A DNA stretch of 64,000 nucleotides, taken from NCBI RefSeq assembly GCF_048403405.1, contig NZ_CP183129.1, one strand, 5' to 3'. Positions within the stretch are counted from its first letter, which is position 1. Every line of letters starts with the position of its first letter. This stretch comes from Escherichia coli. GTDB lineage: Bacteria; Pseudomonadota; Gammaproteobacteria; Enterobacterales; Enterobacteriaceae. The notes under the pieces were generated by a model, which was given only the letters and a program-made list of their open reading frames with translations, did not search any database and had not been told where the DNA came from. Positions 7,667 to 7,761 of the stretch are shown here, one piece after another. A program made the position numbers and the translations under genes.

Positions 7667-7761
7667 TGAATAAATCTATATTTCCAGAATAATCGAAATG
7701 AAATTCAGATCAAGATATTTCTGGTATTATCGAAATATCAACCAGACAAAGGGGGTGTCAT

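Follow-up and report, generated by a model that had tools for sequence, protein, structure and literature searches.

The window analysed here is a 64,000-nucleotide stretch of an Escherichia coli chromosome. A 1.7-kb stretch of the window has an identical counterpart in strain TUM14771. In that strain, the gene order is chuA, chuS, dctR, slp, a hypothetical gene, a permease gene (− strand), an ArsR/SmtB regulator gene (+ strand), then arsC, arsB and arsR (− strand), dinQ and gorA. The permease and regulator genes diverge from a common intergenic region:

6653..7654 (longest ORF to 7666), − strand: gene of an ArsP-family permease of 333 aa (RefSeq start, PF03773)
7762..8058, + strand: gene of a 98-aa putative SpArsR-type ArsR/SmtB repressor (ORF, profiles, identity with SpArsR)

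RefSeq and the alignments of homologues place the permease start at the ATG in 7652-7654, which has a GAGG Shine-Dalgarno sequence, and not at 7664-7666. The intergenic region between the two genes is therefore 7655-7761, and its length, given as 95 bp in a preliminary description of this DNA, is corrected to 107 bp, with the permease starting at 7654.

The 98-aa regulator matches the helix-turn-helix profiles PF12840 (HTH_20, 54.2 bits) and PF01022 (HTH_5, 29.9 bits) as well as NF033788 (61.9 bits, cutoff 55). Its recognition helix, IPGSTLSHHISAL, covers residues 44-56. The protein contains three cysteines, C73, C91 and C92, and none before residue 73. The C91/C92 pair is invariant in six homologues and C73 is conserved. 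This vicinal pair aligns with C101/C102 of SpArsR, from Shewanella, and with C95/C96 of AfArsR, from Acidithiobacillus ferrooxidans. After the CC pair the chain ends with VNSKIA, and there is no cysteine equivalent to C102 of AfArsR. Judged on its sequence, the regulator is an ArsR of the SpArsR (two-cysteine) type, as indicated by its winged helix-turn-helix (wHTH) domain, the CC pair, the missing third ligand cysteine and the linkage to arsP together with the dyad described below.

The permease matches PF03773 (ArsP_1) over residues 13-334 with 180.1 bits, for a cutoff of 32.3. Against the SO_0444 Cu/Zn efflux model (NF033936) it scores 111.3 bits, below the cutoff of 300. PF03773 permeases also include non-arsenic transporters. 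A Cys-rich loop with three CC pairs (…NCCAQAK…VSCCSPAAK…VPCCSTK…) is located at residues ~155-195, and the Shewanella ArsP carries a similar CC-rich loop. This loop may be a metalloid-binding or gating segment. The ArsP of C. jejuni is an efflux permease for methylarsenite, MAs(III), and for trivalent roxarsone (PMC6205960).

On the other side of the permease gene, an intact ORF of 407 aa is located between slp and the permease gene (4850-6073, − strand). A search of this ORF against Pfam and NCBIfam gave no match. For the strain that matches the window at 100% over 6500-8200, RefSeq gives a shorter pseudogene at the positions corresponding to 4957-6073, annotated as a frameshifted hypothetical protein.

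The two intergenic dyads and their conservation

Two candidate operator sites, defined from the sequence, are located between the permease and the regulator genes:

7678..7701: candidate operator site 1, permease side, ATATTTC-CAGAATAATC-GAAATGA
7715..7738: candidate operator site 2, regulator side, ATATTTC-TGGTATTATC-GAAATAT
7678..7751, + strand: two 37-bp tandem direct-repeat units (7678-7714 and 7715-7751), 70% identical to each other

Both sites are 24-bp dyads of the form ATATTTC-N10-GAAATAT, spaced 37 bp apart. Each 37-bp unit opens with one internally palindromic 24-mer, which constitutes one site. Site 2 matches at 14/14 arm positions and has perfect 8-bp arms, GATATTTC and GAAATATC, at 7714-7721 and 7732-7739. 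Site 1 matches at 12/14 arm positions and at 10/10 positions of the core ATTTC/GAAAT, its right arm (GAAATGA) being imperfect. Site 1 is kept across E. coli lineages, in a plasmid copy of the module and in Aeromonas, and corresponds to the distal site of homologous loci.

The motifs ccagaataatcgaaatg (7684-7700) and ctggtattatcgaaata (7721-7737), already pointed out in the preliminary description, are indeed present at these positions. They had been viewed as a repeat of ATCGAAAT with dyad flanks. The repetition holds, but the repeated unit is the 24-bp dyad, present twice, and not the 8-mer; ATCGAAAT is the right arm of the dyad together with three spacer bases. The outer inverted repeat proposed at the same time (ccagaata...tatttctgg) is real, with arms 7678-7699 and 7717-7738 that are 77% complementary, but it is a by-product of the repeated palindrome.

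Two copies of the core dyad ATTTC-N10-GAAAT are present in the 64-kb window, and both are in this intergenic region, for an expected number of 0.09. None of 100 shuffled windows reached two copies. Chance is therefore excluded. The full dyad, with at least 12/14 arm matches, was found nowhere else in the 64-kb window.

Conservation of the dyad was examined in 85 loci encoding relatives of the regulator with 44-95% identity, taken from plasmids and from one genome per species. These loci come from Aeromonas, Vibrio, Photobacterium, Shewanella, Endozoicomonas, Pseudoalteromonas, Pantoea, Hafnia, Acinetobacter, Desulfobacteraceae, Sphingopyxis and others. In about 45 of the 85, an ArsP homologue is encoded divergently, upstream of the regulator. 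The loci were scanned for ATATTTC-N10-GAAATAT with minimum scores of 11/14 at the arm positions and 9/10 at the core positions. In 78 of the 85 loci, at least one dyad lies no more than 260 bp before the regulator gene, and 36 loci have at least two sites. The recurrence of the repeat upstream of homologous modules, which had been suggested as a check of its role, is thus observed. Overall, 121 matches were counted in 22,063 upstream bases versus 22 in 487,642 other bases, a ~120-fold enrichment. Most of these 22 other matches are located directly before arsP or arsH, in tandem arrangements (for example in loci L003, L027, L028, L040, L079 and L080). The dyad, conserved in dozens of genera, is therefore found before arsR, arsP or arsH whatever the gene order, and it behaves as expected of the operator of the regulator.

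When the intergenic sequences are placed side by side, they align on the two sites and their flanks are unalignable. In the position weight matrix (PWM) derived from the sites, the arm bases T-T-C and G-A-A are 99-100% conserved. Site 2 shows no variation within the close clade (five chromosomal lineages of E. coli, the plasmid copy, E. coli E69 and two Aeromonas), in which the flanks diverge. The commonest spacing between sites, found in most genera, is 49-50 bp (23 site pairs), versus 37-39 bp for the E. coli/Aeromonas clade. Three sites, located near −180, −130 and −42, are found in several Vibrio loci, whose intergenic regions measure 200-260 bp. In Aeromonas australiensis, the gene at 3384-3659 of L008, directly 3' of the SpArsR-type regulator, codes for a second ArsR paralogue with 33% identity.

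The Shewanella SpArsR-ArsP pair

SpArsR has reportedly been described by Chen, Nadar and Rosen in 2017 as an MAs(III)-selective ArsR repressor. In PMC11868830, PMC13236881 and PMC12124457, which cite this work, the SpArsR of Shewanella putrefaciens 200 is presented as MAs(III)-selective, with a divergent arsP (SpArsR-ArsP, Sput200_1227/1226). The first two papers indicate that it answers MAs(III) and not As(III) (PMC11868830, PMC13236881). In PMC11868830, the absence of the third ligand cysteine is given as the defining difference between SpArsR and AfArsR. The C102S mutant of AfArsR, which has two cysteines, is organoarsenical-selective like SpArsR (PMC4287715). The SpArsR sequence was rebuilt from a synthetic construct in the supplement of PMC12124457. 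The rebuilt protein has an exact match in Shewanella sp. W3-18-1 (locus L090).

SpArsR and the window regulator share 58% identity over 92 residues and their recognition helix, IPGSTLSHHISAL, is identical. C83, C101 and C102 of SpArsR align with C73, C91 and C92 of the window regulator. The Shewanella ArsP is 53% identical to the window permease. In both cases, arsR and arsP are divergent and the dyads are located between the genes. Some differences are observed. SpArsR has a 10-residue N-terminal extension that is absent from the E. coli protein. In E. coli, two sites 37 bp apart are found in 107 bp of intergenic sequence, whereas the 222 bp of the Shewanella region contain three. Finally, the E. 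coli module stands alone beside arsRBC, whereas in Shewanella the pair is followed by arsC, a second arsR, a second arsP and further genes.

The three dyads of the Shewanella arsP-arsR intergenic region (L090, 3779-4000) are ATATTTCGAATATTCCAGAATAAT, TAATTTCTGGAATTATGGAAATAT and ATATTTCTGGTATTATCGAATTAC. The third one, proximal to the regulator, has 22 of 24 positions in common with site 2, and the two differences are located in the right arm. A reporter in which this 222-bp region drives gfp in E. coli MG1655 ΔarsRBC is repressed by supplied SpArsR (PMC12124457). Its expression reaches 73% of the no-repressor control at 1 uM MMAs(III) and 9% at 50 uM As(III) (PMC12124457). The 222-bp region holds the SpArsR operator; the resolution of the reporter experiment is that of the region, not of the contacted bases. 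No other element being strongly conserved, the dyad is the evident candidate for the SpArsR contact site.

The genes found 3' of SpArsR in this locus (L090, 4416-8318) encode an LMWP ArsC, an R773-like ArsR, a second ArsP, a thioredoxin-like protein, GAPDH and an MFS protein. This second ars block has an arsJ-like arrangement, and its ArsP is 29% identical to the window permease. No dyad was detected before this second block.

Candidate promoters, proposed repression and alternatives

Several promoter candidates are found on each strand of the intergenic region, and every one of them overlaps a dyad. The main ones are:

7722..7730, + strand: candidate extended −10 of the regulator promoter, TGgTATTAT, inside the site 2 spacer
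7666..7693, + strand: alternative candidate promoter TTGAAT-16-AATAAT from a promoter scan, with its −10 inside site 1
7686..7713, − strand: candidate permease promoter, −35 TTGATC (7713-7708), 16-bp spacer, −10 TATTCT (7691-7686)

On the regulator side, a TAWTAT sequence at the centre of the proximal site is conserved in the homologues. The −35 of the alternative TTGAAT-16-AATAAT promoter is TTGACA in the plasmid copy; among the loci compared, this promoter is not conserved beyond the E. coli chromosome and the plasmid copy. On the permease side, the −35 TTGATC abuts site 2 and the −10 TATTCT is inside site 1. The other − strand matches of the promoter scanner, 7741-7712 and 7761-7734, overlap site 2 too.

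In ~20 of 25 divergent loci, the best − strand prediction has a −35 of the form TTGAYN that starts one base past the proximal site. In the loci with 49-50-bp spacing, this TTGAYN is followed by a 17-bp spacer and by a −10 TATATT that overlaps an arm of the distal site. Between the sites of the E. coli/Aeromonas clade, ~12 bp have been lost. According to comparative PWM scoring, + strand promoter predictions are inconsistent between loci, and the scanner and the PWM scoring agree well only for the permease promoter in loci with 49-50-bp spacing. Because the spacing is 37 bp here versus the common 49-50 bp, the promoter geometry of the other loci cannot simply be transferred to the window. In addition, 37 bp corresponds to ~3.5 helical turns, which is not a whole number and thus gives no basis for claiming looping or cooperativity.

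The two 24-bp dyads are very probably the operators of a SpArsR-type repressor, which would exert on arsR and arsP a dual repression released by organoarsenicals. Without inducer, one repressor dimer would be bound to each dyad. At the perfect site 2, the dimer would cover the likely −10 of the repressor's own promoter and abut the −35 of the divergent permease promoter. At the weaker site 1 (12/14), it would cover the likely −10 of the permease promoter. RNA polymerase would thereby be excluded from both promoters, giving autoregulation together with control of the efflux gene. Since all the candidate promoter elements are overlapped by the sites, such a steric exclusion is likely to be how the two divergent promoters are repressed. 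A trivalent organoarsenical, most likely MAs(III), would then bind Cys91-Cys92 and release the repressor, and the ArsP-type efflux permease would be switched on. For the E. coli locus, we infer the binding of the protein to DNA, the exact promoter positions and the identity of the inducer. The early suggestion that the intergenic region contains an autoregulatory operator of the small ArsR-like protein is supported by the 78 loci with an upstream dyad and by the Shewanella dyads.

The operators could be correctly assigned and the signal be a different one. The CC pair might sense inorganic As(III) or Sb(III), Cu, Zn or Cd, an oxidant or a persulfide, and the Cys-rich permease might export the sensed species. 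This idea draws on the nearest named NCBIfam models of the permease, SO_0444 Cu/Zn efflux (111 bits) and SaoE (90 bits), on weak matches of the regulator to the BigR (sulfite/persulfide) and CmtR models and to the YgaV and BigR structures, and on the presence of a third conserved cysteine, C73. However, the NCBIfam scores are far below the cutoffs (111 vs 300 and 38.5 vs 155), and the closest characterised homologue, SpArsR, has the same three cysteines and responds to MAs(III) but hardly to As(III). Moreover, the partners controlled by the dyad across genera are arsP and arsH, often within ars clusters, and the E. coli module directly adjoins arsRBC. Both arsP and arsH are organoarsenical detoxification genes (PMC6205960). 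We therefore regard another signal as unlikely, while giving it some weight.

It is also conceivable that the dyads are bound by another protein, either the canonical ArsR of arsRBC or a global nucleoid or regulatory protein, as the region is AT-rich and adjoins arsRBC. This is very improbable: the dyad accompanies the 98-aa-type regulator in 78 of the 85 loci, in genera that mostly have no adjacent arsRBC; the canonical arsR promoter of the window has an unrelated operator sequence with no dyad nearby; and in an E. coli host without arsRBC, the dyad-bearing Shewanella region was repressed with SpArsR alone. Slightly less probable still is the view that the repeats have no repressor role, being a mere tandem duplication of promoter or AT-rich sequence, or hairpins of a 5' leader RNA. 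The two units are indeed a tandem duplication and the site centres resemble −10 hexamers. Yet the 99-100% conservation concerns the arm bases themselves, and not only the AT content, in loci where the flanks share no similarity, and the dyad occurs singly, in pairs or in triplets, with various spacings, in front of arsR, arsP or arsH in every case. As RNA, the two sites have folding energies of −0.7 and −2.8 kcal/mol (z = −0.07 and −1.45), no better than shuffled sequences, and the two flanking transcripts that were folded, 7700-7775 (+) and 7640-7700 (−), do not exceed shuffles in stability. These weak folding energies argue against the RNA hairpins, a reading that was rejected. Repression of both genes through the two dyads by the 98-aa regulator, with an organoarsenical as the releasing signal, remains the preferred reading.

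Distribution of the module and relation to other ArsR systems

Of 5,426 complete E. coli genomes, 2,383 contain the 76-bp operator region, at 2,249 chromosomal and 364 plasmid places. The identity reaches 99% or more in 1,704 records, and the region carries no annotation. The plasmid copy used above comes from E. coli plasmid p016 (NZ_CP191806.1; L001, 4430-5895), where the whole module is found with both sites kept. Its regulator is ~95-96% identical and its permease 80% identical at the amino acid level, for ~84% identity at the DNA level. On p016, the module adjoins a ProQ/FinO gene; IS26, a rep gene, IS26 and blaCTX-M-55 come next. A regulator with 95% identity or more is encoded in 626 plasmid records, 623 of them at 95-99% and 3 at ≥99%. 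Many of the isolates listed for plasmid records come from poultry or other animals.

More distant relatives, with ~63% identity, are found on Klebsiella plasmids in arsR-arsH or arsP-arsR-arsH contexts, with the same dyad. On a K. pneumoniae plasmid (L004, 3546-4529), the gene of a sigma-70 family sigma factor, then arsD, are located 3' of the dyad-controlled arsR-arsH. Such a factor is unusual in an ars cluster. An unannotated fragment, limited to residues 1-60 of the regulator with 68% identity, was also observed on many Klebsiella, Salmonella and E. coli plasmids (matches H39-H47). It looks like a truncated remnant.

In the searchable open literature, which did not extend to the primary SpArsR paper, no statement of the dyad consensus was found. 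Searches of this literature with the motif strings CTGGAAATATAG and ATCGAAATAT returned only unrelated primers or sequences, and a search for ArsR together with both half-sites returned nothing relevant.

Methylarsenite is a natural antibiotic and reduced roxarsone is another trivalent organoarsenical. A joint reading of these observations can be proposed tentatively, as a possibility that we would not yet favour over its alternatives. A self-contained sensor-pump circuit dedicated to trivalent organoarsenicals would be present in about 40% of the complete genomes of E. coli and on several hundred IncI/IncF-type plasmids from Escherichia and Salmonella. Its own operator code, ATATTTC-N10-GAAATAT, would insulate it from arsRBC. 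In E. coli and Aeromonas, the site spacing would have been compressed from ~49 to 37 bp, each site enclosing the −10 of one of the divergent promoters. Site 2 would ensure tight autoregulation; site 1, being weaker, would allow the pump gene to be expressed first.

The dyad provides a concrete, testable operator consensus for the SpArsR-type subfamily. A very common and unstudied accessory module of E. coli is likely to be a methylarsenite/organoarsenical sensor-efflux circuit, separate from arsRBC, and the module is also found on plasmids that can carry CTX-M. The regulator and the 107-bp promoter-operator region could possibly be used as a native E. coli part for MAs(III)-selective biosensors. 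The consensus might also help to better annotate gene pairs described as permease and ArsR family protein, and the module may serve as a marker of exposure to organoarsenicals in animal-associated E. coli. The way ArsR repressors are understood to act is unchanged.

Among solved structures, the best match to the window regulator is AfArsR (PDB 6J05, E = 4.7e-10). Both regulator genes are located at a divergent ars promoter region. The As(III) site of AfArsR is of type 2 and is formed by Cys95-Cys96-Cys102, whereas the window regulator has the vicinal pair only. The recognition helices also differ (PHNGISFHLKNL in AfArsR versus PGSTLSHHISAL in the window regulator), as do the partner genes, arsB/arsH and arsC for AfArsR versus arsP here. 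A search for ATATTTC-N10-GAAATAT in the arsBH/arsRC intergenic regions of A. ferrooxidans type (L087, 2171-2251, and L089) identified only a GAAATAT half-site. With a half-site only and a different recognition helix, the possibility that the dyad is also the operator of AfArsR was ruled out. The dyad is thus predicted to belong to the SpArsR-like helix and not to all type 2 ArsRs.

The window also encodes a canonical R773-type ArsR (9963-10316, − strand), which carries the ELCVCDLC sequence. This protein and the 98-aa regulator both belong to the ArsR/SmtB wHTH superfamily and would share the logic of an autoregulated repressor released by trivalent arsenicals. The type 1 site of R773-type proteins, Cys32/Cys34/Cys37 (ELCVCDL), is absent from the 98-aa regulator. 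The canonical arsR promoter (10317-10400, − strand) is 2.6 kb away and contains …CCATATATGTTTTTGACTT…, or more fully …ACACATTCGTTAAACCATATATGTTTTTGACTT…, which we take to be the classical ArsR binding region; it is unrelated to 7678-7738. The scan of the 64-kb window found no dyad at or near the arsRBC promoter. Because this promoter has no dyad and the 98-aa protein has no CVC motif, two adjacent but independent ArsR-operator pairs appear to be present, the arsRBC circuit and that of the 98-aa regulator. The distinct specificity suspected from the difference with the canonical arsR operator is in line with these results, and it corresponds to that of the known SpArsR-type subfamily. The E. 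coli pair is an uncharacterised member of the known SpArsR-type system, rather than a new kind of system.
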